Shown piece after piece: positions 6,685-37,896 of a DNA stretch of 64,000 nucleotides (position 1 is its first letter; each line of letters opens with the position of its first letter). Made by a program: the position numbers and the translations under genes. Origin of the DNA: Stellaceae bacterium (GTDB taxonomy: Bacteria; Pseudomonadota; Alphaproteobacteria; ATCC43930; CGMCC-115725); the NCBI GenBank assembly GCA_035605975.1, contig DATNGG010000167.1:643-64642 (forward strand), written 5' to 3'. The notes below the pieces were generated by a model. The model worked only from the letters and a program-made list of their open reading frames with translations. It searched no databases and had not been told where the DNA came from.

Positions 6685-7149
6685 TTATTCGGCTTGGGTG
6701 TTCAGCCGCTTCAGATCGGCGACGATCACCAAAAGCAATTGCTCTTCCACGGTGAGCGGCGTGCGCTGCTCGGCAGACTCGCCGCTGTAGCCCTGCAACT
6801 CGGCGCAAAACCGAAGCTTCAGAGTGACATCGTCCAATGTCTCGGCAGGCGTATCGGCAATTACCCATTCCAGTCGCTCGAGCGCCTGGCTCGCACGCAC
6901 TTCGGCGCGCCGCACGCAGCGCGATCGTTGCATAGGCCGAGAGCCGGCCGCCCTCAGCCGGTCCGCTTCATCGCCCAACCCCATCAGGAGCCGCTCGAGC
7001 TCGGCGCGCCGCCGCAGCAACAGCGCGAGACAGGATTCGCCGTTAGACCGCGCCACCAGCGAGGGCCGCAGCGCCAGCGTCGAGCCGGCCGCTAGCAAAA
7101 TATCTCTGCGGCTGGTGCGGGCGGGAAGAGCGTTTCGGCCTTGTCGCAT
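6685..7149 (-). CDS. Hypothetical protein with twin-arginine-like signal
   Basis: MRQGRNALPARTSRRDILLAAGSTLAL... resembles a Tat leader. The rest is helical and Arg/Leu-rich. No family recognised. Confidence 0.35.
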   Translation of the reverse strand: MRQGRNALPARTSRRDILLAAGSTLALRPSLVARSNGESCLALLLRRRAELERLLMGLGDEADRLRAAGSRPMQRSRCVRRAEVRASQALERLEWVIADTPAETLDDVTLKLRFCAELQGYSGESAEQRTPLTVEEQLLLVIVADLKRLNTQAE

Positions 7150-7321
7150 GGCGGGCCCGACACAGATCGCTCCTTTCGCCCGCGCCAGCAAGTCCAATGC
7201 CCGATCATCCTGTGGCGTAATTCGGCACTGTCGGAGCATTTTCTTGCTCGGTAGCGGGATGGCTGGGCGCTCGCCCTTCCTGGGTTGCCCTACCGCTTAG
7301 CCGCCCTCTTGCTACCGCGAC

Positions 7322-7493
7322 TTCCCTGGTCGAAAAGGGAAAATTCCCTGCTCACGTCTAACAATTCGCTGTTCGCTCGAATAGGGAATTCCGAGCCAAA
7401 CGCACGGTAATCCCCGCTCATCGGACAGCAATTGATGCCCTAAAAAGCGCAAAAACCACAAAATTCCCTGCAGATTCCCTGATTAACAGGGAA
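7322..7493. repeat. Cluster of TTCCCTG / CAGGGAA heptamers in non-coding DNA
   Basis: Exact TTCCCTG at 7322, 7344, 7464 and 7475. Inverted CAGGGAA at 7487, giving TTCCCTG-ATTAA-CAGGGAA at 7475-7493. GGGAA-AA-TTCCC at ~7337-7348 and GGGAATTCC at 7384-7392. Confidence 0.5.
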
Positions 7494-25003: not shown

Positions 25004-27412
25004 GTGACGCCGCCCGATGGGAATCGCGCCGCGCCGCGGCCGGCCCGGGCACCGCGCGTGCGCGGGCGCCTCTTCCGCAAATATGTCGTGCTGTTCGCCG
25101 CGGTGGTCTCGATCGTCCTTCTCGCCAACGGCTTGCTCGAGATCTGGTTCTCATACCAGGACCACGAGGCCTCGCTCATCCGCTTGCAGCAGGAGCAGGC
25201 GGAATCGGCCGCGGCCAAGCTCGGCGAATTCGTCACCGAGATCGAAAGCCAGGTCGGCTGGACGACGCAATTGTCGTGGTCGGCGAACAGCCTCGAGCAG
25301 CGCCGCTTCGACGCGCTGCGGCTGCTGCGGCAGGTTCCGGCGGTCACGGAGCTGGCTTTGCTCGATTCGGCCGGCAAGGAAAGGCTGCGCGTCTCGCGCA
25401 TCGCCATGGACGTCGTCGGCAGCGAGCGCGACTTTTCGCAGACGCCCGAATTCACCGAGGCCGTTGCGCACAAAATCTATATCAGCCCGGTCCATTTCCT
25501 GCGCGAGTCCGAGCCCTATATCACCCTGGCGCTCGCCGGAACGCGGCGCGAGAACGGCGTCAGCGTCGCCGAGGTCAATCTCAAATTGATGTGGGACGTG
25601 GTCTCGCACATCAAGGTCGGCACGCACGGCGTCGCCTATGTCGTCGATCGGCAAGGCCGGCTGATCGCGCATCCCGATATCAGCCTCGTTCTGCGCAACA
25701 CCGACATGTCGCGCCTCGCGCAATTTCGCGCGGCGCGCGACGCAACCGACAACAGCAGCGCTGACGCCGTCCAGATCGCGGATGACATCCACGGTCGCCG
25801 CGTGCTGACCGCCTACGCCGTCGCCGCCCCCATGGGTTGGCTCGTCTTCGTCGAGCTTCCGGTCGCCGAGGCCTATGGCCCGCTCTACACCGCGATCCTT
25901 CGCTCGATCCTTCTCCTGTCGGCGGCTCTCGTCCTTGCCGGCCTCGCCGGATTTTTCCTTGCCCGCCGGATGGTCGGGCCGATCCTCGCCTTGCGGGCCG
26001 GCGCCTTGCGCATCGGCAGCGGCGACTTCGCCCAGCGCATTGCGATCAAGACGGGCGACGAGCTCGAAGTGCTCGCCGACCAGTTCAACGACATGGGCAG
26101 CCGGCTCCAGCAGTCCTATGCCGATCTCGAGAAAAAGGTCGAGCTGCGCACCCGCGAGCTGGCGCAGTCGGTCGAGGAGCTCCGTGCCTTGGGCGAGGTC
26201 AGCCAAGCCGTCAACTCGACGCTCGATGTGTCCTCGGTCCTCGCGACCATCGTTGCGAAAGCCGTCCAGCTTTCCGAGACGGATGCCGGCGCGATTTATG
26301 TCTTCGACGAGCCTCGCCAGGAATTCGCGCTGCGCGCGACGCATGGCATGTCCGACGATCTCATCGACGCCATCACCCGCCATCAGGCGGAGCTCGGCGA
26401 CACCACCATCGGCGAAGCCGCCCAAACCGGCAAGCCGACCCAGATTCCCGATCTCCTCGAAACGCCGCATCTCCCGCTCCAACAGCTCGTCCTCCAGGCG
26501 GGCTTCCGGGCGCTGTTGGTGGTGCCTCTCCTTCGCGGCAATCGTATCATCGGCGCGCTTGTCGTCCGGCGCCGCGCACCCGGCTCCTTTCCCTCGGCCA
26601 TTGTCGAGTTGCTCGAGACCTTTGCGGCGCAATCGGCGCTCGCCATCCACAATGCCAGCCTCTTCACCGAGATCGACGAGAAGAGCCGCGAGCTCGAAGT
26701 CGCGAGCCAGCACAAATCGCAGTTCCTCGCTAATGTCAGCCATGAGCTGCGCACGCCGCTCAACGCCATCCTTGGCTATACCGAACTGGTGCTCGACGAC
26801 ATCTATGGCCAGGTGCCGAATAAGATCCGCGAGGTACTGAAACGCGTGCAGACGAACGGCCAGCATCTGCTGGGGCTGATCAACGACGTGCTCGATCTCT
26901 CGAAGATCGAAGCGGGGCAGATGGCGCTCTCGGTTACGGCATATTCGCTCGACGACATTCTTCACGGCGTCGTCGCGTCGCTCGAGCCGCTCGCCGCCGA
27001 AAAGCGGCTGAAGCTCGCGCTCGATCTCGCGCCTGGCCTGCCGATCGGCCATGGCGATGCCCGGCGCATCGCGCAGGTCCTGCTCAATCTCGTCGGCAAC
27101 GCCATCAAATTCACCGATCGCGGCGAGGTTGGGGTGGCGGCCATGGCCGAAAATGGGCGCTTCCGCATCGCGGTGCGCGACACCGGTCCGGGGATCCCGC
27201 CCGCCGAGCAGAAAAGGGTGTTCGACGAATTTCACCAGGTCGACAATTCCACCACCAAAGCCAAAGGCGGAACGGGTCTTGGCCTCGCCATCGCCAAGCA
27301 GATCATCGACCTGCATGGCGGCAAAATCTGGCTCGACTCGAAGCCCGGCCAAGGCTCGACCTTCACGATCAGCCTTCCGGTCGTGGTGGAACGGCAGATG
27401 GAGCGCGTATGA
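25004..27412 (+). CDS. Sensor histidine kinase (TM - Cache-like - TM - HAMP - GAF - HisKA - HATPase_c)
   Basis: 802 aa. HAMP: ARRMVGPILALRAGALRIGSGDFAQRI. GAF: ALGEVSQAVNSTLDVSSVL... H-box: FLANVSHELRTPLNAILGY. N and G boxes: LLNLVGNAIKFT, DTGPGI, GTGLGLAIAK. Confidence 0.9.
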   Translation: MTPPDGNRAAPRPARAPRVRGRLFRKYVVLFAAVVSIVLLANGLLEIWFSYQDHEASLIRLQQEQAESAAAKLGEFVTEIESQVGWTTQLSWSANSLEQRRFDALRLLRQVPAVTELALLDSAGKERLRVSRIAMDVVGSERDFSQTPEFTEAVAHKIYISPVHFLRESEPYITLALAGTRRENGVSVAEVNLKLMWDVVSHIKVGTHGVAYVVDRQGRLIAHPDISLVLRNTDMSRLAQFRAARDATDNSSADAVQIADDIHGRRVLTAYAVAAPMGWLVFVELPVAEAYGPLYTAILRSILLLSAALVLAGLAGFFLARRMVGPILALRAGALRIGSGDFAQRIAIKTGDELEVLADQFNDMGSRLQQSYADLEKKVELRTRELAQSVEELRALGEVSQAVNSTLDVSSVLATIVAKAVQLSETDAGAIYVFDEPRQEFALRATHGMSDDLIDAITRHQAELGDTTIGEAAQTGKPTQIPDLLETPHLPLQQLVLQAGFRALLVVPLLRGNRIIGALVVRRRAPGSFPSAIVELLETFAAQSALAIHNASLFTEIDEKSRELEVASQHKSQFLANVSHELRTPLNAILGYTELVLDDIYGQVPNKIREVLKRVQTNGQHLLGLINDVLDLSKIEAGQMALSVTAYSLDDILHGVVASLEPLAAEKRLKLALDLAPGLPIGHGDARRIAQVLLNLVGNAIKFTDRGEVGVAAMAENGRFRIAVRDTGPGIPPAEQKRVFDEFHQVDNSTTKAKGGTGLGLAIAKQIIDLHGGKIWLDSKPGQGSTFTISLPVVVERQMERV

Positions 27413-27771
27413 CAAAGCGCGTACTCGTGGTCGAGGACCACGAAGACAACCGGCAAATCCTGCGCGACCTTTTGGGCAGCGCCGGATTCGAGATCATCGA
27501 GGCCGAAAACGGCGAAGAGGCGGTGACGCTCGCCGAGACCGGCCGGCCCGACGTCATTCTGATGGATATTCAACTGCCGGTTCTCGATGGCTATGAGGCG
27601 ACGCGGCGCATCAAGGCCAATCCCCGCTCGCGCTCGATCCCAGTGATCGTCGTGACCTCCTATGCGCTGAGCGGCGACGAGGAGAAGGCCCGGCTCGCGG
27701 GATGCGATGATTACGTCTCGAAGCCCTTCAGCCCGCGCGACTTGCTGGCCAAGATCAGGCGTTATGTGTGA
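27409..27771 (+). CDS. Single-domain response regulator (CheY-like receiver)
   Basis: VLVVEDHEDNRQIL..PDVILMDIQLPVLDG..SIPVIVVTSYA..DDYVSKPF. ATGA overlap with the kinase stop. Confidence 0.9.
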   Translation: MTKRVLVVEDHEDNRQILRDLLGSAGFEIIEAENGEEAVTLAETGRPDVILMDIQLPVLDGYEATRRIKANPRSRSIPVIVVTSYALSGDEEKARLAGCDDYVSKPFSPRDLLAKIRRYV

Positions 27772-27789
27772 GGGAGCGACCGGAACGCG

Positions 27790-28902
27790 ATGCAGGATCC
27801 GCCGCGCATATTGATCGTCGACGACAACGAGGCCAACCGCGACATCGTCAAGACGCGTCTCGCGGTGAACGGCTACGAATTTCTCGAGGCCGCGGATGGC
27901 GAGCAGGCGCTCGATGCGGCACGGCGCTTTGCGCCGGACCTGATCCTGCTCGATGTGATGATGCCGAAGATCGACGGCATCGAGGTCTGCCGCCGGCTGA
28001 GGGCCGAGGCGGGTGCGCCGTTCGTTCCGATCATCCTGGTGACGGCGCGCACCGACAGCCGCGACGTGGTGGCGGGGCTCGAAGCCGGGGCGGATGAGTA
28101 TCTAACCAAGCCTGTGGACCAGATCGCGCTGGTGGCCCGCGTCAAATCGATGCTGCGCCTCAAAGAGCTGCATGACCGCGTCACCGCTCATGCGCGCGAC
28201 CTCGCGGACTGGAACCGGGCCTTGGAGCAGCGTGTCGCCGATCAGGTCGGCGAGATCGAACGCATCGGCCAGCTGAAGCGGTTTCTCTCGCCGCAGATCG
28301 CGGAGATGATCGTCTCGACTGGCAATGAGAAAATCCTCGAAAGCCATCGCCGCGAGATCACCGTCGTCGTCTGCGACCTGCGCGGCTTCACCGCCTTCTC
28401 CGACACGGCCGAGCCCGAAGACGTCATGACGCTGCTGCGCGAATACCAGGCAACGCTCGGCCGGCTCATCGATAAATACGAGGGAACCCTCGAGCGGTTC
28501 ACGGGCGACGGGCTCCTCGTCTGGTTCAACGATCCCGTCCCCTGCCTCGATCCTTGCAGCCGCGCCGCGCGCATGGCGATCGACATGCGGGATTCGGTCT
28601 CGCGCATGACGGCGAAATGGCGCGACCTCGACCACAATCTCGGATTTGCGATCGGGATCGCCCATGGCTACGCGACGCTTGGCCGGATCGGCTTCGAGCG
28701 GCGCTTCGACTATGCCGCCGTCGGGGTGGTCGTCAACCTCGCGGCGCGGCTTTGCGCCGAGGCGAGCGACACGCAAATCTTCATCGACAGCAAGGTCTTT
28801 GCCGCGATTTCGGCGCAGGCAACGGCGGAGCCGGTCGGCGAGCTGGCGCTGAAAGGTTTCAACCGCCCGGTGAAGGCTTATAATCTTCTGGCGGCGCGAT
28901 GA
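27790..28902 (+). CDS. Response regulator receiver fused to a class III adenylate/guanylate cyclase
   Basis: Receiver: ILIVDDNEANR..DLILLDVMMPKIDG..DEYLTKP. Coiled linker. Cyclase: ITVVVCDLRGFTAFSD...ERFTGDGLLVWFNDP...IGIAHGYATLGRIG. Confidence 0.9.
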   Translation: MQDPPRILIVDDNEANRDIVKTRLAVNGYEFLEAADGEQALDAARRFAPDLILLDVMMPKIDGIEVCRRLRAEAGAPFVPIILVTARTDSRDVVAGLEAGADEYLTKPVDQIALVARVKSMLRLKELHDRVTAHARDLADWNRALEQRVADQVGEIERIGQLKRFLSPQIAEMIVSTGNEKILESHRREITVVVCDLRGFTAFSDTAEPEDVMTLLREYQATLGRLIDKYEGTLERFTGDGLLVWFNDPVPCLDPCSRAARMAIDMRDSVSRMTAKWRDLDHNLGFAIGIAHGYATLGRIGFERRFDYAAVGVVVNLAARLCAEASDTQIFIDSKVFAAISAQATAEPVGELALKGFNRPVKAYNLLAAR

Positions 28903-29618
28903 TGTCGGAAGAAAGGCGGCGCGCTGTGGCAGCCGATGCGATCTCGCAGGATTTAGTCCGGCATTTGGGCAAATGCCTGTTGTTCCGCGCGCTCGACGAT
29001 GCGGCGCGCGAAGAGCTTGCCTCGCGCGTGCACCACCGCCAGTTCAAATCGGGCGAGCCGATCTTCCATGTCGGCGCTCCCGGCCAAAGCATGATGGTGA
29101 TCCTCAAAGGCACAGTCAGAGTGTCGCTCCCCGGCCCCACCGGCAAGACCGTCATCCTCGCCGATCTCACCACCGGCGACATTCTCGGCGAGGTCGCTCT
29201 GCTCGATGGCGGGGGCCGCTCCGCCGATGCGACGGCGCTGACCAATTGCACGGTGGCAACGCTCGAGCGGCGCGAGGTTCTGCCGCTGATCGAGAAGCGG
29301 CCGGAAGTCTGCCTGAAGCTGCTCGAGCTGATGTGCGCGAGGCTGCGAAAATCGGACGAGCGCATGGCGGAGATCGCGTTCTTCGAGCTGCCGGCGCGGT
29401 TGGCGAAAGTCCTGCTCGAGCGGATCGGCCAAGCCGGCGGCAGCGCACCGAAATTGTCGCTATCGCAGAGCGAGCTCGCGAGCATGATCAATGCGAGCCG
29501 AGAGAACGTCAATCGCTGTCTCAAGGATTGGCAGCGCCGCGGCCTGGTGAGCCTCGACGAGCGCTGGATCAGCATCCTGCAGCGCGACGCCCTCGGCGAT
29601 ATCGCAAGCCGCCTTTGA
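28899..29618 (+). CDS. Crp/Fnr-family cyclic-nucleotide-binding transcriptional regulator
   Basis: cNMP-binding domain (FKSGEPIFHVGAPGQSMMVILKGTVRV..GDILGEVALLDGGGRSADATA) plus C-terminal HTH (LSQSELASMINASRENVNRCLKDW). ATGA overlap with the cyclase stop. Confidence 0.9.
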   Translation: MMSEERRRAVAADAISQDLVRHLGKCLLFRALDDAAREELASRVHHRQFKSGEPIFHVGAPGQSMMVILKGTVRVSLPGPTGKTVILADLTTGDILGEVALLDGGGRSADATALTNCTVATLERREVLPLIEKRPEVCLKLLELMCARLRKSDERMAEIAFFELPARLAKVLLERIGQAGGSAPKLSLSQSELASMINASRENVNRCLKDWQRRGLVSLDERWISILQRDALGDIASRL

Positions 29619-29849
29619 CTGCTTCGGCTGCCGCGCCCCGCGGGGCTGGCCCCGTCACGCTAAACGAAAATGTTGCCGCGCACGATCATTCATAATGATT
29701 ATTGTCTCGTTTTTCGCGTCACGGTATAGTCAAACGAAATCAAAGTACGGATTGCGGACGCAGACAAAATCTTCGCCGTAAAGCCGTGGGTGGCACAAGC
29801 GTCAGATCAAGTGGCATGAACGTGTTGCCAGCGAGGGCTGGTTCTGCGA

Positions 29850-30764
29850 ATGCGTTTGCAACGGCTTTGTTCGCCTTTGCGGCTTGCCATCCCTGCCTCG
29901 GCGCGGATGCGGTGGTTGGCGCGCGCGCGCAGCGACAAACACCGCGCCACTCCTGAGATCACGATCCGCTTCGACTTCCAAGGAACCAGCGAGCAGAGCT
30001 TATCGGCGGGCGAGCGCGCATCCTTCTGCGCCGCATTTCGCCGCGAACTGACAAGTCTCCGAACGTGGCTGGCTAACTGGCAAGACCCGCCGGACGAGTT
30101 GTCCGTTCCCACACTGCAGGTGCTGGTCTCGGATGGCTACAAAATTTCGCGGGCGCTGGTGCCGGCCTGGGAGCGCCGCAGCGGCGTGCTGGAATTCCCG
30201 ACCTCGCGGGTGGTGAGCGGCAAGGCGGCGATCCTCCATGAGCTGACACATGTCTACCTGCCGAACGGCAACCGGTTTCTTGCGGAAGGTCTCGCGACTT
30301 ACCTTCAAGCGCGTCTCGGGGGCAATCCCGCCTTTCCCGATTTCGGCCGGCCGTTGCACGGCTTGGCGCGCGACGGTCTGCTCGAAATCGCTTCGGGGAA
30401 AGCGGAGACTTTCGCGAGCGTCGGGCTCGGCGAGCTCGATGCAACGCCGACGCCCAATCCCTTGACGCTCGCCGCGGCGGGGCGGCGCTATCGACGGCAA
30501 GCCGATATCCAGGCGGCCATCTATGCGATCGTCGGCTCCTTCGTCGAATTCCTCATCGCAGCGCAAGGGCTCGAGCGGTTTCAGCGACTCTATCGCGCAA
30601 CGCCGCTGACGCCGGGACGGCTCGAAGCCGGCGCGACCGAACGATGGTCCGAAATTTACGGCCGCAGCCTCGCCGATCTCGAAGCCGACTGGAAATCGCT
30701 GATCGTCGGCGAGCATCGGCACGGCGGACCGAACGCACAAGCGCGGGCCCGTCGGCTCGCGTAG
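29850..30764 (+). CDS. Peptidase MA-like zinc metallohydrolase (HEXXH..E); N-terminus uncertain
   Basis: AAILHELTHVYLPNGNRFLAEGLATYLQ matches the Peptidase_MA_2-type motif HExxH...(W/F)LxEGLAxY. An out-of-frame ORF (ATG 29816) encodes a lipoprotein-like signal; see finding. Confidence 0.6.
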   Translation: MRLQRLCSPLRLAIPASARMRWLARARSDKHRATPEITIRFDFQGTSEQSLSAGERASFCAAFRRELTSLRTWLANWQDPPDELSVPTLQVLVSDGYKISRALVPAWERRSGVLEFPTSRVVSGKAAILHELTHVYLPNGNRFLAEGLATYLQARLGGNPAFPDFGRPLHGLARDGLLEIASGKAETFASVGLGELDATPTPNPLTLAAAGRRYRRQADIQAAIYAIVGSFVEFLIAAQGLERFQRLYRATPLTPGRLEAGATERWSEIYGRSLADLEADWKSLIVGEHRHGGPNAQARARRLA

Positions 30765-30787
30765 AAACCCGAACGAGGAGGACGACA

Positions 30788-31105
30788 ATGCCGGAAATCA
30801 ACCCGAAGCTCAGCCGCGCGGCGGTGAAACGCTCGGCTCGCAAGACAGCGGCGGGCAAGGGCCGCGTGCCGCTTCCCGGCGTCAAGACCGACGCCAAGCA
30901 CGTCGACGCTTCCGACAAATGCGCTTATGCGGAAAACCGCGAACTGGCGCGGCTGATCGAGAAGGCGATGCGCACCGTCAAGAAGCACGACAAGAACGGT
31001 CAGCACTTCGTCCTCGGCTGGCGGCTCTATCCCAATCGCGATCATCCGCGGTGGAAGAACAAGGATGTTCATTCCTGCGGATGCGGCTGCGGCTGCGGCT
31101 CCTAG
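30788..31105 (+). CDS. Candidate RiPP precursor peptide, 105 aa, C-terminal (Cys-Gly)4-Ser
   Basis: GAGGAGGA SD 6 nt upstream of ATG 30788. Translation: MPEINPKLSRAAVKRSARKTAAGKGRVPLPGVKTDAKHVDASDKCAYAENRELARLIEKAMRTVKKHDKNGQHFVLGWRLYPNRDHPRWKNKDVHSCGCGCGCGS*. GC-rich third positions. Sits directly upstream of a DUF692 operon. Confidence 0.6.
   Translation: MPEINPKLSRAAVKRSARKTAAGKGRVPLPGVKTDAKHVDASDKCAYAENRELARLIEKAMRTVKKHDKNGQHFVLGWRLYPNRDHPRWKNKDVHSCGCGCGCGS
31076..31099 (+). repeat. Coding hexanucleotide tandem repeat TGCGG(A/C) x4
   Basis: tgcgga tgcggc tgcggc tgcggc, encoding CGCGCGCG at the 3' end of the precursor ORF. Confidence 0.95.
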
Positions 31106-31172: not shown

Positions 31173-32027
31173 ATGCCAGCATCGCCGACGCAGGGCATTG
31201 GCGTGTTGTCGAGTATTTCCTTCAGCGGAACGAGGCTGGCAGATGCCTTCCTCAAAGGGCTCGGCCGCGAGGTCTATCTCAATGTGAAAGACAATCGCGG
31301 CTACGACGCGAAATCGCTGAACGAGGCTCTGCAAGCGCTGAACAACGACATCAAGATCGGCTTGATCGTGACGGCCGGCGGCCTGGTGGTGGCGCAGGAA
31401 GCGGGGAAGGATACGGGCGCGACCCTGCCCTTCATCTCGCTGGTTGGCGGCACGCCCGGCCCCTTCCCAAGCCGCGGCCAGGGATATTTTCGCGGCGGCG
31501 TGAGCCTCGAATCCTTTGCCGAAAATCCGCACCGGCTCGCTCACCTCGCCGGTCTCGGCATTCCCGAAAGCAAAACCTGCCTCCTCTCCAATCCCAATTC
31601 CTCGATGGCCGCCGCCGAAACCGCAGCATGGACGGCAGGCAAGCGCGGCCCGGTGATCAAGGCGGGAAGCGTCAGCAAGGGCAGCGCCAACAGTGCCGCG
31701 ACCTATCGGCCGGCTTTTGCCGAGATCGAGAAAGCCGGAATGATGGCCGTCGTCGTCAGCGCCGATCCCTTCTTCCAGGAAACCATGGAAGAGCTGATCG
31801 ACGCGGCTAATCGCTGGATCGCGCAGGGCAAGGGCCGGCGGATCAGCTATCCCTTGCACGAATATGAAAATCCCGCCGGGAAGTGCAAGCCCGCGCCCGG
31901 TTACACACTGCACGGCCCGGTTCTCGAAGAGGCCTATGAGGCGTTGGGCCGGATGGCGGCCGATTTCCTCGCCGATCAGCCCATTCGGCTGCAAACCCTC
32001 GGGCTCAGCGCGCCGCGCGATCGATGA
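31173..32027 (+). CDS. Signal-less (cytoplasmic) PF04392/ABC_sub_bind-like protein
   Basis: GGGGAGG SD 6 nt before the ATG. Alignable by eye with the secreted SBP at 35700: LIVTAGGLVVAQEAGKDTGATLPFISLVG vs LIAATGGVVSAKAALKATTSIPVVFVVG; VVVSADPFF vs LIVSADPYF; YPLHEY vs YPLRQY; HGPVLEEAYEALGRMAADFL vs YGPNLEHAYRDAGIYAGRIL. No N-terminal hydrophobic signal. Confidence 0.65.
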   Translation: MPASPTQGIGVLSSISFSGTRLADAFLKGLGREVYLNVKDNRGYDAKSLNEALQALNNDIKIGLIVTAGGLVVAQEAGKDTGATLPFISLVGGTPGPFPSRGQGYFRGGVSLESFAENPHRLAHLAGLGIPESKTCLLSNPNSSMAAAETAAWTAGKRGPVIKAGSVSKGSANSAATYRPAFAEIEKAGMMAVVVSADPFFQETMEELIDAANRWIAQGKGRRISYPLHEYENPAGKCKPAPGYTLHGPVLEEAYEALGRMAADFLADQPIRLQTLGLSAPRDR

Positions 32028-33679
32028 AGCCTGGACGTTCGGCGCAACGGATCGGAACGGCATCGCAAGCGAATGCTGGCCCGGACGCCGCGCCGCTTGT
32101 GGGGATCGGGTACCGCGCCGTGCTCGCGGATTGGACGCGCGCTCATCTGGCGCGCTTCGATGTGCTCGAAATCACCGTCGATCACTGCCTCTATGCCGGG
32201 CCGGCGCAGCGCCGACACATCGACGAGCTCGTCGAGCGCGTTCCGCTCACCGCGCACGGCATCGGGCTATCGATCGGCACGGATTGTCCGCTCGATCCTG
32301 CCTATCTCGACCAAGTCGGCATCGTCATCGAGCGGCTGAAGGCGCCCGCCTATAGCGAGCATCTCGCCTTCACGCGCGTCCCGGGCCGCGATCTCGGCAA
32401 TCTCTTGCCCGTGCCGCGAACCGAGGCGGCGGCAGCGCAGATCGTCGCGAAAATCCGCGACATCCGCGCGCGGCTCGGCGTGCCGTTCCTCATCGAGAAT
32501 ATCGCCAATATTTTCGAATGGCCGCAATCGACCCTGTCGGAAGCCGAATTCATCAGCCTGATTTGCCGCGAATCCGGCGCCGGGCTGCTGCTCGATATCG
32601 AAAACCTGCGCCTCAACGCGCGCAATCATCATGTCGATGCCCGCGCATTTCTCGACGCCTTGCCGCCGGGTCTGGTGCGAGAGATGCACATGGCGGGCGG
32701 CATCGCGGTGCGCGATGCAAGCTCCGGCGCCTCGATCCTCGCCGATTCGCACTCGCATCCGGTCGGCGAGGAGACGCTCGCCCTTCTCGATTATGCGCTG
32801 AAGCGGCATCGCCCGCAGACGCTCATCCTCGAGCGCGACGACCGGCTCGAGGCCGGCGACGAGATTCTGGCCGATGTCGCGCGGATTCGCGCGCTGCTTG
32901 CCGAGCGTAATGCTGCGATCGATCCGGCGCCCGAGCATCGGCGGGAGACGCTCCTCGCTCGGCAGACCCAATTGCTCGCCTATCTCACCAGCGCGCCGGC
33001 CATTTTCGGCGGCGGCCCGGCGGCGGCGCTTCCGCCGCTGCTCGAAGGTATCGATCCCGTCCGGCTCGATTTCGAGGCGCGCTTCTCGCATGAGAAACGC
33101 ATGGAAAAGCTTGCAAGAATCTTCCCGCGCACGCTCGATCTGTTGGAAGCACAACGAGCGGAGCTCCTCCAAGCCTTTGCCGAGGCTTGCCCGCCGGCGA
33201 GCATCGGATTGTTGGAAACGGCGCAGCAATTCTTGGATTTCCTGTCGGCGCGCCCGCCGCGCGCGGGCCGCTCGAACTATGCGTGCGATGTTGCCCGATG
33301 CGAGCTCGCCCTCGCACAGGCGCGCTTTCGCCGAGGCGAGCCGCCAAAGCGCACGCGGCGCAGCGCGCCGGCGCATGGCGCCCCGCATGCCGTACGACGC
33401 GCCGAATCCGTCGCGCTTGTCCGGTGCGCGCACGATGTCCGAAGCCTTTTTGAGAGCGCGGCCGTCTCGGCCGCGCCGCAAAGGCGCGACACGCCGCTGG
33501 TGATCGCCCAGAGCCGCGCGGCGTTGGAGCCCGAAATTTTCGAGATTCCCGCGGCGCTCTTCGATCTCCTTGCGTCACTCGAGCATTGGACCGAGCGGCG
33601 TTGCCTTGGCCGCAATCCCGGCGCCGACGCCCTCATCGCCGATCTCGTGACGCGCGGCCTGCTGGAGGTGCGCGCTTGA
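32024..33679 (+). CDS. DUF692 / MNIO (MbnB-like multinuclear non-heme iron oxidase) fused to a DUF2063-like C-terminal domain
   Basis: N-terminal ~290 aa match the DUF692 pattern: VGIGYR..FDVLEITVDH..PLTAHGIGLSIGT..PAYSEHLAFT..LLPVPRTEAA..PFLIENIANIF..GLLLDIENLRLNARNH..EMHMAGG..LADSHSHPV..TLILERDD. C-terminal ~250 aa (..RLDFEARFSHEKRMEKLARIFPRTLDLL..LLQAFAEACPPAS..AQQFLDFLSA..) resemble DUF2063 partner proteins. ATGA overlap with the upstream gene. Confidence 0.85.
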   Translation: MKPGRSAQRIGTASQANAGPDAAPLVGIGYRAVLADWTRAHLARFDVLEITVDHCLYAGPAQRRHIDELVERVPLTAHGIGLSIGTDCPLDPAYLDQVGIVIERLKAPAYSEHLAFTRVPGRDLGNLLPVPRTEAAAAQIVAKIRDIRARLGVPFLIENIANIFEWPQSTLSEAEFISLICRESGAGLLLDIENLRLNARNHHVDARAFLDALPPGLVREMHMAGGIAVRDASSGASILADSHSHPVGEETLALLDYALKRHRPQTLILERDDRLEAGDEILADVARIRALLAERNAAIDPAPEHRRETLLARQTQLLAYLTSAPAIFGGGPAAALPPLLEGIDPVRLDFEARFSHEKRMEKLARIFPRTLDLLEAQRAELLQAFAEACPPASIGLLETAQQFLDFLSARPPRAGRSNYACDVARCELALAQARFRRGEPPKRTRRSAPAHGAPHAVRRAESVALVRCAHDVRSLFESAAVSAAPQRRDTPLVIAQSRAALEPEIFEIPAALFDLLASLEHWTERRCLGRNPGADALIADLVTRGLLEVRA

Positions 33680-35703
33680 AGATTTGCATCATCGGCAAGT
33701 TTCCTCCGATCGAGGGTGGGGTGAGCATGCGCACCTATTGGTCGGCGCATCGGCTCGCGGCGCGCGGACATGAGGTCCATGTCGTGACCAACGCAAAAGA
33801 GGCGGCGCCGCCCTTTCGCATGCATATGCGCGCGGAGGATTGGGCGCGCTGCGCGGCCGATTACGGCGAAGGCCGGGTGACGGTTCACTGGAGCGATCCG
33901 GTCGACGCCTCGCAGCTTTACCTGCCGATGGCGAGCGCCTTCGTCTCGAAGCTCTCCTCCCTTGCCGCGCGCCTCTGCACGGAGCGCGCGATCGATGTGG
34001 TCTTCTCCCATTACCTCGAGCCTTATGGCGTCGCCGGACATTTGGCTGCCGAGATGGCGGGTTTGCCCCATGTCGTCCGTATGGCGGGAAGCGATTCGGG
34101 TCGCCTCTGGCGCCATCCGCAATTCGAGCCGCTTTACAACCACGTCTTGCGCTCGGCGGCCATTGTCGTCGCGACGGGCGTGGTCGCCGAACGAGCGGTG
34201 GCGCGCGGCGTCGATCCGGCGCGCATCGCCGCCGCGGGTTTCAGCCTGCCGGACGAGCTCTTCACCCCCTTCGGGCCTGCGCTCGATTACGCCGCTTTGC
34301 GCGCGGAAATCGCGGGAGCCGACGAGCCGCAGCGTCTTTGGGGTGGCTTCGCCTTGGACCGGCCGTTCTTTGGAATTTACGGCAAGCTCGGCGAGCGCAA
34401 AGGCTCCTTCGCGCTCCTCGCGGCGCTGGAGCGATTGAAGTGCGCGGGCATCGAGATTGGCCTCGTCGCTCTGGCGCATGGGCATGCGGCGACCGAAGCG
34501 GAATTTCGCCGCCACGTCGAAAGCCGCGGCCTCTTCGACCGGGTGTTGCAGCTTCCGTTTCTGCCGCATTGGCGCGTGCCCGAGTTCCTGCGCAGCTGCC
34601 TCGCTGTCTGCTGCCTCGAGCAGGATTTCCCGATCGCTCATCACACGCCGATCACGCCGCTCGAAGTCCTGCTCTGCGGCAAATGCCTCGTCGGCTCGGC
34701 GGAGCTCATCCGCAAGCTTCCGGATCATCGCCTCTTGCCGAGCGGCTATAGCTGCGTCGAGATCGCGGACGTCAACGATATCGACCGGCTGGCGGCACAG
34801 CTTGCCGCGATCGCCGAAGACCCGGCGCCGGCGGCGGCGATCGGCGCGCGCGGCTATGCGTTTGCGTGCGAATGCCAGGAGCAGGCCGAGTTTCCGGCCA
34901 AGCTGGAGCGCATTCTCGAAGTGGCGGCGGCGCGCCGAAACCTGGTCTCGTCACAAGAGGTATTGGCAGAGAGCGAGAGCGAGGAAGAGCGGAGCTTTCC
35001 CTTTGCGCGAATCGCGGCCGCCGCGCTCGCCGCGACGGAGTCGAAACCCGCCAAGACGAACGGCGCGCGGTTCGAACTCTCGGATGCGCAGACGGTTTTG
35101 GCGGCGCTCGATCGCGGGCGGCTCGCGGATCACCCAAAATCGGCATCGCTCGCTTCGGCCGTGTGGGCCGAAGTCGCGATCGCGCTTGCTCAAGGCGCGA
35201 CGCGAGAGCCCGAAGACATCGGAGCGGAACCGCCGCCGCTCGCCGCGTCCCGACGCTGGGGCTTGGCCGAGGGCGATCTCGCCAAGCTTTTTCCCCATCG
35301 CCGCCGGGATATAAAAGTGCTCACTTTCGACTGCGACATTGCCGCATTCCGGACAGCGAGGAACCTCGAGGAACTGCCCGACGCGCCGCGCCGCCATCCG
35401 AGCTATGTGATCGTGTTCAGCGGCCGCGGCTCGTCGCCGGCCGATCCGCTGCTGGTCGACCGCGCCACCGCGCGTATCCTCGAGCTCAGCGACGGAACGC
35501 GAACGACCCGCCAGATCATGGATCAATTGAAATGCGAGACGCAGCGCGGCGATACGGACGAGAATCTCGACTGGATCGAGGCCCTCTTCGTTGATGGGCT
35601 CATCCGCTTCACCGACTCGCCCGCGAGGCCCTCAGACGGTAGCATGATGCTGCGGCTGCGACATCCCCGCGCCAGCGGGACGGATGACAGGATGGCACAG
35701 TGA
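33676..35703 (+). CDS. GT4-type (GT-B) glycosyltransferase fused to a C-terminal PqqD-like RiPP recognition element
   Basis: TTG 33676 (GGAGG 7 nt upstream; TTGA overlap with the MNIO stop). N-terminus: KICIIGKFPPIEGGVSMRTYWSAHRLAARGHEVHVVT. C-terminal GT lobe: GIYGKLGERKG..PLEVLLCGKCLVGS. Last ~75 aa: YVIVFSGRGSSPADPLLVDRATARILELSDGTRTTRQIMDQLKCE..NLDWIEALFVDGLIRF, which follows the PqqD pattern. Confidence 0.8.
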   Translation: MKICIIGKFPPIEGGVSMRTYWSAHRLAARGHEVHVVTNAKEAAPPFRMHMRAEDWARCAADYGEGRVTVHWSDPVDASQLYLPMASAFVSKLSSLAARLCTERAIDVVFSHYLEPYGVAGHLAAEMAGLPHVVRMAGSDSGRLWRHPQFEPLYNHVLRSAAIVVATGVVAERAVARGVDPARIAAAGFSLPDELFTPFGPALDYAALRAEIAGADEPQRLWGGFALDRPFFGIYGKLGERKGSFALLAALERLKCAGIEIGLVALAHGHAATEAEFRRHVESRGLFDRVLQLPFLPHWRVPEFLRSCLAVCCLEQDFPIAHHTPITPLEVLLCGKCLVGSAELIRKLPDHRLLPSGYSCVEIADVNDIDRLAAQLAAIAEDPAPAAAIGARGYAFACECQEQAEFPAKLERILEVAAARRNLVSSQEVLAESESEEERSFPFARIAAAALAATESKPAKTNGARFELSDAQTVLAALDRGRLADHPKSASLASAVWAEVAIALAQGATREPEDIGAEPPPLAASRRWGLAEGDLAKLFPHRRRDIKVLTFDCDIAAFRTARNLEELPDAPRRHPSYVIVFSGRGSSPADPLLVDRATARILELSDGTRTTRQIMDQLKCETQRGDTDENLDWIEALFVDGLIRFTDSPARPSDGSMMLRLRHPRASGTDDRMAQ

Positions 35704-36692
35704 TCCGGCGGAATTTCCTCGCTCTTCTCGCCTCGCTGGCGCTGTGCCCGCCCGCGGCGCATGCGGATCAAGCCCCGGACCAGGCGGCAATGCCGGTCAT
35801 CGGCTTCCTGAACAGCGGCTCGCCGGCGGCGTTTGGGAATCTCGTTGCCGCCTTCCGCCAAGGCTTGGGCGATCAAGGCTATGCCGAAGGCTCGACCCTG
35901 CGGATCGATTACCGTTGGGCGCAGGGCCGCTACACCGATCTCGACGGCATGGCCGCGGAGCTGGTGCGCAACCGCGTGAGCCTTATCGCCGCCACGGGCG
36001 GCGTGGTCTCGGCCAAGGCCGCGCTCAAAGCGACGACGTCGATTCCGGTGGTGTTCGTCGTCGGCTTCGACCCGGTCGGATTGGGCCTCGTCAAAAGCCT
36101 CAACCAGCCCGGCGGCAACGCCACCGGCGTCAGCATCTTCACGACGGAATTGATCGCAAAGCGCGTCGAGCTGCTTTACGACCTCTCGCCCGGCATCAGC
36201 ACCGTCGCCATCCTGGTCAACCCCAAGGCGGTCGTCACCGACATCGAAATCCAGGAGACCATCGCGGCGATCCAGCGTTCCGGCCGCAAATTGCTCACGC
36301 TCAACGCGAACAACGAGAGCGAGATCGACGCCGCCTTCGCCTTGGCGGCCGAGCAGAAAGCCGGCGGGCTGATCGTCAGCGCCGATCCCTACTTCACCAG
36401 CCGCAGAGCGCAAATCGTCGCCCTCGCCGCGCGCCACGCAATCCCCGCGATCTATCCCTTGCGCCAATACGCCGATGCCGGCGGCCTCGTCAGCTATGGG
36501 CCCAATCTCGAGCACGCCTATCGCGACGCCGGGATTTATGCGGGCCGGATTCTGAAAGGCGCCAGCCCCAAGACGCTTCCGGTGGCGCTGCCGACGACCT
36601 TCAATCTCGTCATCAACCTCAAAGCCGCCAAGGCCCAAGGCCTCAAAGTGTCGCCGCTTCTCCTCGCCATCGCCAATGACGTGATCGAGTAA
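35700..36692 (+). CDS. Secreted ABC-type substrate-binding protein, PF04392 (ABC_sub_bind) family
   Basis: GTG start with a GTGA overlap on the GT stop. Signal peptide MIRRNFLALLASLALCPPAAHA. Family pattern: PVIGFLNSGSP..FRQGLGDQGY..IAATGG..PVVFVVGFDPV..GNATGVS... Confidence 0.85.
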   Translation: MIRRNFLALLASLALCPPAAHADQAPDQAAMPVIGFLNSGSPAAFGNLVAAFRQGLGDQGYAEGSTLRIDYRWAQGRYTDLDGMAAELVRNRVSLIAATGGVVSAKAALKATTSIPVVFVVGFDPVGLGLVKSLNQPGGNATGVSIFTTELIAKRVELLYDLSPGISTVAILVNPKAVVTDIEIQETIAAIQRSGRKLLTLNANNESEIDAAFALAAEQKAGGLIVSADPYFTSRRAQIVALAARHAIPAIYPLRQYADAGGLVSYGPNLEHAYRDAGIYAGRILKGASPKTLPVALPTTFNLVINLKAAKAQGLKVSPLLLAIANDVIE

Positions 36693-36717: not shown

Positions 36718-37896
36718 CTAGGCTGGGCTCTCGTCGCGCAACGGCGCGAGAAAATAGGCGGAGGGCAGCAGCGTGTGACCTGGCGCATCGACCCGATCGG
36801 CAATCCGCATATAAGAATTGACCCGAGACGATTTGCCGATCGCCCAGATCACCGCATTGCGCAAGGGATAGGCCGAGCGCGGCCATTCCGAGGTGATCCA
36901 GTCGTAGCGGCGGGACCAGGTTTGCGTCCGGTCGGCGACCCAGCGCCATGCGCCTTGCCAGGCGGTGAGGGCTTCCGGCACATCGCTGCGCGCGGACACA
37001 TAATCCGACAGCAGCAAACCATTCATCAAGGAGAGGCCGGCGCCTTGGCCAAGCGTCGGCGGCAGCGCATGGGCGGCATCGCCGAGCAAAGCGACGCGGC
37101 CTTTCACCCAGGACACCGCCCGCACGAAGGGATAGGGGTGGTGAACGCCGCCAGCTGCGTAAGCGCGCGCGAATAATCCCTCCGCGGCGAGTTTCGGAAA
37201 CCGCGCGCTCCAATAGTCGCGATCGATCGGCGTTTGCATGCCGCGTTGATCATCGAGAGGGGCGATGAAATAGCAGAAGGCCTCGGTCGGCGTGCAGGGG
37301 CAGACCCCCACCCGCAGCCGGCCCGACCAAAATTCGCGCACCATATCGTCCTTCTCGGGCGCGGTCCTCGAAACCAAGAGACGGATCGCGCCGCTCGAGG
37401 GCGGGCGAACCGGCTCATCAAGCGCCAGCGCGCGGCGCGCGAGCGAACTCACGCCGTCGGCGGCGATCACCAGCTCGGCTTGGTGAATTTCGCCGCGCAC
37501 GCGGATCGCGCCGCGCGCCTCGATGGCATCGACCGGAGAATCCGTGTGCACCCTCGCGCCGAGGGAGGTCGCGCGGTCGCACAGGGCGCGGATCAGCAAC
37601 TCGCGCTTGACGTTCCAGATCGAGGTCGTGTCGCGCAGCAAGCGCCGCTGCAGCAGCCGGCCCTCGCGGTCGAGCGTCCGCGCCTCGGCAAGCGCCACGC
37701 AATCGCCGCGGATCGCATCGATGACCCCGAAGCTTTCGAGAACGCGCAGAGCATTCCCTTTGACGAAGATGCCGGCGCCGATTTCCCGGATGGTTGGGCT
37801 GCGCTCATAGACATCGACGGACCACCCGTTTCGCGCCAAGCCGATCGCCGCGCCAAGCCCGGCAATGCCGCCCCCGCAGATGATTGCCTGTCGCAT
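36718..37896 (-). CDS. FAD-dependent aromatic-ring monooxygenase (salicylate hydroxylase/UbiH-like)
   Basis: GxGxxG: AIICGGGIAGLGAAIGL. Also DGVSSLAR and LLGDAAHALPPTLGQGAGLSL. Convergent with the RiPP-like operon. Confidence 0.85.
   Translation of the reverse strand: MRQAIICGGGIAGLGAAIGLARNGWSVDVYERSPTIREIGAGIFVKGNALRVLESFGVIDAIRGDCVALAEARTLDREGRLLQRRLLRDTTSIWNVKRELLIRALCDRATSLGARVHTDSPVDAIEARGAIRVRGEIHQAELVIAADGVSSLARRALALDEPVRPPSSGAIRLLVSRTAPEKDDMVREFWSGRLRVGVCPCTPTEAFCYFIAPLDDQRGMQTPIDRDYWSARFPKLAAEGLFARAYAAGGVHHPYPFVRAVSWVKGRVALLGDAAHALPPTLGQGAGLSLMNGLLLSDYVSARSDVPEALTAWQGAWRWVADRTQTWSRRYDWITSEWPRSAYPLRNAVIWAIGKSSRVNSYMRIADRVDAPGHTLLPSAYFLAPLRDESPA

Follow-up and report, generated by a model that had tools for sequence, protein, structure and literature searches.

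The window analysed here is a stretch of 64,000 nt from contig DATNGG010000167.1 of a Stellaceae bacterium. Its subject is P105, the product of an open reading frame (ORF) at 30788..31105, together with the operon in which this ORF lies. An earlier note, made from the sequence alone, had described P105 as a precursor-like peptide whose terminal Cys-Gly repeats might be modified by an enzyme of the Cys-modifying MNIO family. Reading the window sequence confirmed the ORF and its length of 105 amino acids. The protein ends in ...KDVHSCGCGCGCGS, with HSCGCGCGCGS as the closing residues, and contains five Cys residues (C45 and C97, C99, C101 and C103), so the reported run of four Cys in terminal Cys-Gly repeats after a His was borne out. 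The hexanucleotide repeat was likewise found exactly as claimed, with the tail written tgc gga tgc ggc tgc ggc tgc ggc, and no other C-[GSA]-C-[GSA]-C-[GSA]-C tract occurs in any of the six frames of the 64 kb. These four tail Cys residues are the presumed sites of MNIO modification. With 23 Lys and Arg residues and 10 Asp and Glu residues, P105 is indeed rich in Lys and Arg; the description as His-rich was overstated, as only five of the 105 residues are His, though H86 and H95 are invariant. No hydrophobic signal segment is present, as had been stated, since the Kyte-Doolittle maximum (11-residue averaging window, first 40 residues) reaches 0.11 in P105 versus 2.63 in the exported binding protein of the same cluster. 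Pfam and NCBIfam scans of P105 gave zero matches, even at E <= 10. The AlphaFold2 (AF2) model, built from a shallow alignment, has a predicted local distance difference test (pLDDT) score of 43 and shows two helices with the rest disordered, and P105 is therefore predicted to be largely disordered, without a confident autonomous fold.

The operon runs in the order U304, P105, U284, a fusion of the MNIO with a DUF2063-like domain, a glycosyltransferase of family 4 (GT4) and an exported ABC_sub_bind protein (Table 1). P105 has the strongest ribosome-binding site of the operon. From U284 onwards each gene overlaps the next by 4 nt (ATGA/TTGA/GTGA-type), which indicates translational coupling. A promoter/terminator scan returned one weak promoter-like site and nothing after the precursor gene, and no RNA hairpin or attenuator was found between P105 and U284 (z-score 0.70).

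Table 1. Features of the P105 locus, in window coordinates.
Feature	Position	Strand	Description
Regulatory module	25004..29618	+	sensor kinase (dCache-HAMP-GAF-HisKA), response regulator, response-regulator/nucleotide cyclase and Crp-type cyclic nucleotide (cNMP)-binding regulator; Pfam matches
Promoter-like site	29702-29730		weak
U304	29850..30764	+	HExxH+E metallopeptidase-like protein, MA clan
Shine-Dalgarno GAGGAGGA	30775-30782	+	5 nt upstream of the P105 ATG; read from sequence
P105	30788..31105	+	105-aa basic precursor-like protein without signal peptide; family unannotated
W78-R-L-Y-P-N83	31019..31036	+	most conserved motif of the family, ~14 residues upstream of the Cys tract
Core H95-S-C-G-C-G-C-G-C-G-S105	31070..31102	+	four Cys at i,i+2 spacing
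Hexanucleotide-repeat codons	31076-31099	+	tail codons
U284	31173..32027	+	divergent ABC_sub_bind (PF04392) homolog without signal peptide
U284/MNIO overlap	32024-32027		4 nt
MNIO-partner fusion	32024..33679	+	MNIO at residues ~26-292; divergent DUF2063-type domain at residues ~300-551
MNIO/GT overlap	33676-33679		4 nt
GT4-family glycosyltransferase	33676..35703	+	N-terminal ~400 aa glycosyltransferase; ~275-aa C-terminal module at 34876-35700
GT/binding protein overlap	35700-35703		4 nt
Exported ABC_sub_bind protein	35700..36692	+	PF04392, E 1.5e-47; hydrophobic N-terminus, Kyte-Doolittle 2.63
FAD-dependent monooxygenase (PF01494)	36718..37896	-	conserved neighbour of the cluster

The conservation of the ORF was checked by a homology search of ~5.8 billion proteins, which returned 314 relatives at E <= 0.01, nearly all of 105 residues. 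Among the best 120 of these, 100 are exactly 105 residues long, identities to P105 range from 67 to 94%, and none carries a functional name. The alignment of the close clade has zero indels and 42 invariant columns, including C45, W78-R-L-Y-P-N83, H86, W89, H95 and the four tail Cys residues. Conservation, at ~70%, covers all 105 residues, a feature beyond the tail that the earlier note had missed. In 63 distinct 105-codon genes taken from contigs, nucleotide diversity at the first, second and third codon positions was 0.18/0.12/0.46 over the whole gene and 0.04/0.00/0.46 in the tail codons. This concentration of diversity at third positions identifies P105 as a real translated gene under purifying selection.

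When 1.84 billion cluster representatives were searched exhaustively with a profile, 114 matched at 50% clustering, and the family is therefore considerably wider than the close clade. Across 57 diverse members W78 and R79 are invariant and P82 and N83 nearly so. The W-R-[LM]-Y-P-N motif, which stands a median of 14 residues before the Cys tract, is kept in distant members, in which a His two residues before the first tract Cys is also usual. On this pattern, W78-R-L-Y-P-N83 is a candidate enzyme-recognition motif. In scale the family comprises some 300 close and 100 distant cluster representatives. All of them come from uncultured bacteria; the 28 genome matches all belong to metagenome-assembled Alphaproteobacteria, and the metagenome matches come mostly from soil.

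The Cys-Gly tract itself is equally constant. Of 120 close relatives, 119 have exactly four alternating Cys residues, after which come two variable residues (SA, SS, GS, HA and others), and the comparison of (CG)n copy number among homologues found H[S/A]CGCGCGC to be invariant in the close clade. This one peptide is encoded by 30 distinct DNA versions of the tail, in which Gly is written as GGC 43, GGA 31, GGG 27 and GGT 6 times and Cys as TGC 107 and TGT 17 times. At most two identical hexamers follow one another in 20 of 31 tails, and the near-identical contigs L001 and L003 show a synonymous GGC/GGA difference at the same copy number. With codons scrambled synonymously and copy number constant, the perfect hexamer run of the window is incidental. 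The suggestion that slippage would vary (CG)n between strains thus failed: the four-Cys tail is fixed by selection on the peptide. Differences in tract length (2-6 Cys) are confined to deeply diverged subfamilies, with two Cys in 6 distant representatives, three in 12, four in 46, five in 12 and six in 1. Gly serves as the spacer in the close clade, and distant members have G, S, A, N or T there. Many of the distant relatives have a tract that is not C-terminal, which had also been overlooked; at least 10 residues follow it in 33 of 77 distant members, often as a Lys/Arg/Pro/Ala-rich extension. In P0128-P0138, P0136, P0149 and others this extension is long, Lys/Arg/Ala/Pro-rich and histone-H1-like, leaving the tract internal, and such members may bind polyanions. 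The same motif as in the P105 tail was also seen in a 165-aa SlyD-like FKBP protein of a Geobacteraceae metagenome-assembled genome (MAG; locus L037, 6608-7105, + strand), within the insert ...DDDHSCGCGCGCDSH....

The association of P105 with an MNIO was followed across genomes and metagenomes. A scan of 185,579 species genomes yielded 27 true P105 loci, all in MAGs of uncultured Alphaproteobacteria (Xanthobacteraceae, Stellaceae, Rhodoplanes and others), some of which hold two or three copies. MNIO, partner and glycosyltransferase genes lie within 10 kb in 20 of the 27, and the other seven are 'orphan' pairs of P105 and a U284-like gene, five of them in MAGs that carry a complete cluster on another contig. 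On metagenome contigs the gene directly after the precursor gene is like U284 or the exported binding protein in 39 of the 42 cases that could be assessed. U304 lies upstream of the precursor gene in 38 of 43, and the set is complete in nearly all long loci, with MNIO, partner and glycosyltransferase genes downstream. The metagenome scan mainly yielded close relatives, and the contexts of the most distant members rest on four loci.

Adjacency to MNIO and partner is kept in relatives at 31-48% identity (P0154, L118, L119, L107, L109 and L117), and the precursor gene is directly adjacent to the MNIO gene in P0154, L109 and L119. P0154, with the tail CGCGCGCGCG, has an MNIO and a 241-aa partner directly downstream; P0132, which has a Lys-rich extension, is flanked by a U304 homolog and an MNIO; and P0201, with 31% local identity and the tail CGCGCSCACGCS, is divergent from genes for binding protein, MNIO, partner and glycosyltransferase that are 45-67% identical to those of the window. 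These identities show the enzymes to be much better conserved than the peptide, whose association with the MNIO is ancient. That the linkage holds at 31-48% identity supports the reading of P105 as a precursor. These clusters contain no further small ORF rich in Cys. In two loci, tandem P105-U284-P105-U284 arrays precede a single MNIO-partner-glycosyltransferase set (L015 10001-12976; L024 10001-12668), and L025 contains an inverted duplication of the precursor gene and its U284-like partner gene (7066-7341, - strand). P105 displays what is generally expected of an MNIO precursor, being a conserved, co-directional small ORF near a PF05114 gene whose product is fused to a DUF2063/RRE-type partner (RRE, RiPP recognition element, where RiPPs are peptides made by ribosomes and then modified post-translationally). 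The proposal that P105 is an MNIO substrate gained support from this PF05114 gene two genes downstream and from the association with MNIO, partner and glycosyltransferase across divergent relatives.

The MNIO domain of the window matches PF05114 with an E-value of 5.5e-71. In NCBIfam the BufB and HvfB models rank top, ahead of ApyH, MbnB and ChrH, and all three scores that we compared with family cut-offs are below them: 202 bits against 310 for BufB (NF050167), 177 against 360 for HvfB (NF003818) and 48.5 against 325 for MbnB (TIGR04159). The nearest PDB entries are 3BWW (E 2.8e-30), TglH (3.7e-15) and MbnB (2e-5). 3BWW belongs to the MNIO-PME1 systems that install 5-thiooxazoles (PMC13097082). 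By these comparisons the MNIO seems closest to the 5-thiooxazole-forming, captophorin-type clade, yet it remains under the family cut-offs of that clade. Aligned with 3BWW, TglH and MbnB, it retains the H-x-AGG, D-S-H and L-E-R-D motifs. Directly after the catalytic Asp it has a second Asp (ERDD) instead of the Phe of 3BWW (ERDF), at a position that has been tied to selectivity around the Cys (PMC13097082). The same work, in which FonB prefers a Cys-Gly dyad and rejects charged residues after the Cys (PMC13097082), backs the premise that MNIOs favour Cys with a small residue after it; a (C-G)n core is compatible with this preference. The expectation of an unusually dense core also held, the i,i+2 Cys spacing of P105 being denser than the 5-residue repeats described in that study.

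The partner domain comprises 251 residues and is intermediate between the 'type 1' and 'type 2' definitions of PMC12452194; in the window fusion its DUF2063 score is 22.5 bits, with a cut-off of 27.2. MNIO and partner are fused in the window, L008, L010 and L013 and are encoded by separate genes in most other loci; in L005 and the P0154 locus, for example, the partner is a separate gene of ~240 codons. In L022, L061 and L065 (~5518-5706 in L022 coordinates) we also observed an MNIO-like fragment of ~70 residues (45% identity) between two U284-like genes and upstream of the intact MNIO, which may be a duplication remnant.

The glycosyltransferase matches Glyco_trans_4_4 (1.9e-13) and Glycos_transf_1 (2.7e-9), and by eye its last ~70 residues look PqqD-like. 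Sequence support for the C-terminal module is weak: PqqD was the sole profile match in the PDB, at E 0.2-0.3, and Pfam PqqD is matched by 3 of 18 orthologs, with a best E of 0.002. The AF2 model of this module (14 sequences) has a pLDDT of 73, exceeding 90 over most of residues 140-240, and shows a helical bundle followed by beta-strands and three helices. Foldseek against the PDB placed TglI (8HI7_A) on top (E 2.8e-4, 269 residues aligned), with PqqD, leader-bound TbiB1, TruD, NisB, TbtB and MibB among the lower matches. TglI is the partner protein of the MNIO TglH, and the others are leader-peptide-binding modules. The glycosyltransferase is thus predicted, from its modelled fold, to have a partner-like/RRE module of its own, an argument for a leader-bearing peptide as its substrate. 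In having a PqqD-like winged-helix domain, as judged from the AF2 model and Foldseek, it resembles RRE-dependent RiPP glycosyltransferases. The module and the MNIO-fused partner were also compared as possible sequence paralogs, and hhalign detected no homology (probability 1.3%).

U304 has an invariant block, H130-E-L-x-H134...N141-R-x-L-A-E146-G, and 6 of 17 orthologs match Peptidase_MA_2, at best with E 7.6e-6 and all under the gathering cut-off. It is a candidate leader peptidase. A PDB search with the single U304 sequence gave no match and a profile search gave only chance-level matches. We rejected U304 as an alpha-ketoglutarate-dependent HExxH RiPP oxygenase (IPR026337), as it has no NCBIfam match at E <= 0.01 and its orthologs point to Peptidase_MA_2. 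In a side observation, the ORF of P0187 (128 aa) combines the C-terminal half of a U304-like HExxH protein with the final ~30 residues of a P105-like protein (…WRLYPNEEHPAWKDKAVHSCGCGCGCST), an arrangement that probably reflects a deletion or faulty assembly.

U284 is the gene most tightly paired with the precursor gene. It has no Pfam match of its own, and in the PDB the single sequence found nothing and the profile only chance-level matches; compared with the exported binding protein of the cluster by hhalign, it aligned with a probability of 99.7% (E 3.5e-27). The protein begins directly with the mature domain. In some loci the U284-like gene after the precursor gene encodes a twin-arginine signal (L007 8380-9408, L016 10358-11437, L031 10407-11438), in L005, L024, L028 and L029 a Lys-rich N-terminal extension and in L015 and L018 an additional N-terminal domain of ~100 residues; U284 of the window has none of these. 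The exported binding protein, whose signal peptide includes a twin-arginine-like RRNFL motif, is encoded in or beside the cluster in most loci. The FAD monooxygenase is found beside the cluster at 63-77% identity in L008, L013, L015, L016, L020, L024 and L027; it is possibly a tailoring enzyme, and its membership of the cluster is uncertain. The regulatory module is syntenic with the cluster in L008, L010 and L013 and inverted in L016, L025, L032 and L107, and this frequent synteny suggests cNMP-dependent control of the operon.

Taken with the constancy of the tail, we consider it probable that P105 is a real MNIO substrate with a (Cys-Gly)4 core fixed by selection, and very likely that the enzyme in question is the neighbouring MNIO. 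In the pathway that we infer, with its assignment of enzymes to sites, its chemistry, its order of steps and its metal-binding role, P105 would be translated in the cytoplasm as a ribosomal substrate of the MNIO/DUF2063-like enzyme, be it a RiPP precursor or a small modified protein. The two separate recognition modules, fused to the MNIO and to the glycosyltransferase respectively, would each bind the conserved N-terminal ~95 residues, above all W-R-L-Y-P-N. The MNIO would then oxidise the four Cys residues of H-S-C-G-C-G-C-G-C, most probably to 5-thiooxazoles. As each ring would use the carbonyl of the preceding residue, the four heterocycles would be separated only by -C(O)NH-CH2- links. 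The GT4 enzyme would attach a sugar to the peptide, U304 would trim it and may remove part of the leader, and the PF04392-like proteins, cytoplasmic U284 and the exported binding protein, would bind the peptide or its product.

If captophorins and methanobactin are a guide, the most plausible product would be a thiolate-rich, His-assisted metal (copper) ligand, and a glycosylated, poly-thiooxazole, metal-binding peptide would be the likely outcome of the pathway as a whole. Judged separately, the presence of 5-thiooxazoles in the product has slightly less than an even chance, and metal binding as its role is similarly tentative. We regard it as doubtful that the system amounts to a new RiPP class, that is, a glycosylated peptide or small protein with four contiguous MNIO-derived sulfur heterocycles from the (Cys-Gly)4 core, made by two enzymes (MNIO and GT4) each with its own partner/RRE-type module and served by PF04392 binding proteins instead of a transporter. 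A product of such a class might stay in the cytoplasm to buffer metals or redox state, or it might be sensed via the co-located binding protein, the sensor kinase, the cyclase and the Crp circuit.

Several observations weigh against P105 being an MNIO substrate of this kind. The annotated neighbourhood genes include no exporter, and a signal peptide, which nearly all described captophorin precursors have, is missing from P105; partners of the DUF2063 type go with exported precursors (PMC12452194). In the partner domain, 10 of 19 orthologs match DUF2063 at 22.5-24 bits (best E 4.7e-5), all sub-threshold, and the partner-domain profile found no relative in the PDB, not even 3DEE. As the MNIO is under the BufB and HvfB equivalog cut-offs, its reaction may differ, and the modification chemistry of P105 is inferred throughout. 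A leader that is discarded would not usually be conserved over its full length without indels, and conservation of the kind seen in folded proteins does not fit the pLDDT of 43 obtained from the shallow alignment. The one-to-one pairing of the precursor with a PF04392-like paralog has no known precedent among RiPP systems. Lastly, the MAGs of L019 and L030 hold P105 and a U284-like gene with no detected MNIO, and no MNIO lies within the 16.7-kb locus of the L037 FKBP gene.

Some of these points would be met if P105 were an MNIO substrate undergoing another chemistry, such as oxazolone/thioamide pairs of the methanobactin kind, C-beta excision or Cys-derived cross-links, where the closely abutting Cys residues may force a new outcome. 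The scores under the BufB and HvfB cut-offs, the ERDD sequence at a selectivity-linked position (PMC13097082) and an i,i+2 Cys spacing absent from the described repeat types all leave room for this, and MNIOs are chemically diverse. However, the nearest characterised relatives all fall in the 5-thiooxazole-forming clade, and the partner is of the DUF2063-like type associated with that chemistry, so that we regard a different reaction as unlikely.

Alternatively, P105 may be an unmodified metallothionein- or metallochaperone-like protein whose H-x-(C-G)3-C tail binds Cu(I) or Zn, with the MNIO and the glycosyltransferase acting elsewhere or at a different part of P105. Runs of C-x-C are a classical motif for thiolate ligation, and the identical DHSCGCGCGCDSH in the SlyD-like FKBP of L037, with no MNIO nearby, means that the unmodified motif can serve in metal handling. 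The full-length conservation, which is protein-like and not leader-like, the orphan P105-U284 pairs and the lack of an exporter in the cluster are also in keeping with such a protein. Yet adjacency to MNIO and partner persists down to ~31% identity in clusters that contain no other Cys-rich small ORF, most orphan copies share a MAG with a full cluster, and P105 is predicted to be largely disordered. An unmodified tail is, in our judgement, improbable.

Still less probable is that P105 acts as a reusable scaffold peptide of the pearlin/3-thiaglutamate type, with a small molecule built at the C-terminus and released by the HExxH peptidase. The long, highly conserved leader, the C-terminal core, the adjacent peptidase gene and the fold match of the glycosyltransferase module to TglI of the 3-thiaglutamate pathway recall such a system, but no locus encodes a PEARL/LanB-like aminoacyl-transfer enzyme in its annotated neighbourhood and TglH is a weaker match to the MNIO than 3BWW. 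Moreover, the last two residues vary freely (SA, SS, GS, HA), and 33 of 77 distant members have at least 10 residues after the tract. A slippage-prone contingency tract that varies (CG)n between strains can be set aside, since the three perfect TGCGGC units of the window and the range of 2-6 Cys among deep subfamilies are outweighed by a copy number of four in 119 of 120 close relatives, the synonymously scrambled tails and the L001/L003 pair, and among close relatives the repeat units are not kept identical in DNA and do not vary in copy number.

Returning to P105 as an MNIO substrate, we compared the system with those already described. Captophorins (bufferins, oxazolin HvfA and fontiphorin) are copper-binding RiPPs with 5-thiooxazoles made by pairs of an MNIO and PME1 (DUF2063-RRE) (PMC13097082, PMC11626156, PMC12452194). 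The window MNIO is most similar to this clade and keeps the L-E-R-D and metal motifs, a DUF2063-like partner follows the MNIO or is fused to it, and a small uncharged residue follows each Cys of the Cys-rich core. In contrast, P105 lacks a Sec signal peptide and lies outside the DUF2282, Lys-Cys (EGKCG) and Cys-Lys groups, with no Lys flanking the Cys residues, which are spaced i,i+2 and not in the 5-residue repeats of captophorins. Both the MNIO and its partner score under the family cut-offs. The P105 cluster has no DoxX gene, and it adds a GT4 with a partner-like/RRE module, an HExxH peptidase-like protein and binding proteins of the PF04392 type. On these sequence features the P105 system appears most like the captophorin system, from which it departs in equivalog scores, precursor group and signal peptide, and it is neither a methanobactin nor a pearlin system.

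With methanobactin (MbnA/MbnB/MbnC) it shares an MNIO acting on Cys before Gly, Ser or Ala in a C-terminal core, a metal-binding product (both predicted for P105) and an operon-encoded periplasmic binding protein, which is MbnE there and a PF04392 protein here. However, the annotated P105 neighbourhoods lack genes for MbnC, a TonB receptor and a MATE exporter, the MbnB model score is far below its cut-off, and P105 has 105 residues whereas MbnA has about 25-30. The TglHI/pearlin system resembles that of P105 in its long, conserved leader and in TglI, the structure closest to the C-terminal module of the glycosyltransferase. It differs in that no PEARL (LanB C-terminal-like) enzyme was found among the called genes of L001-L009 or the window, TglH is more distant from the window MNIO than 3BWW, and the TglI-like module sits on a glycosyltransferase and is not partnered with the MNIO. 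The alternating Cys-small tract after a His is shared with metallothionein C-x-C motifs and SlyD-type Cys/His-rich inserts and tails, including the identical motif in L037, but the P105 gene stays linked to genes of a Cys-modifying enzyme family even in deeply diverged relatives.

In the literature on MNIO/DUF692 enzymes, thiooxazoles, glycosylation and PF04392 in RiPPs we found no description of the P105 family, and none of a (Cys-Gly)n precursor, a fusion of a GT4 with a partner module or a PF04392 protein in RiPP clusters. Two MNIO landscape papers, whose large supplementary data sets are not fully searchable, mention neither CGCGC-type cores nor glycosyltransferases. P105 therefore apparently represents an undescribed family of MNIO substrates from uncultured soil bacteria. 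MNIOs, which depend on iron, are among the fastest-growing sources of new peptide chemistry, and their superfamily is known to hide many substrates, most of them unassigned. The P105 family offers a clean, conserved substrate set with a dense core that has a Cys at every second position. Its signal-less precursor with a DUF2063-like partner runs counter to the correlation between signal peptide and partner type (PMC12452194). The predicted fusion of a GT4 with a TglI/RRE-like module would extend RRE-glycosyltransferase fusions, previously noted only for PF00535 (PMC12710340), beyond that family, and the one-to-one pairing of precursor and PF04392 paralog is without counterpart in known RiPP logic. 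The P105 system bears on whether MNIOs can act on adjacent Cys-Gly dyads, on how a poly-thiooxazole ligand would function and on the part that binding-protein folds may play in peptide maturation.

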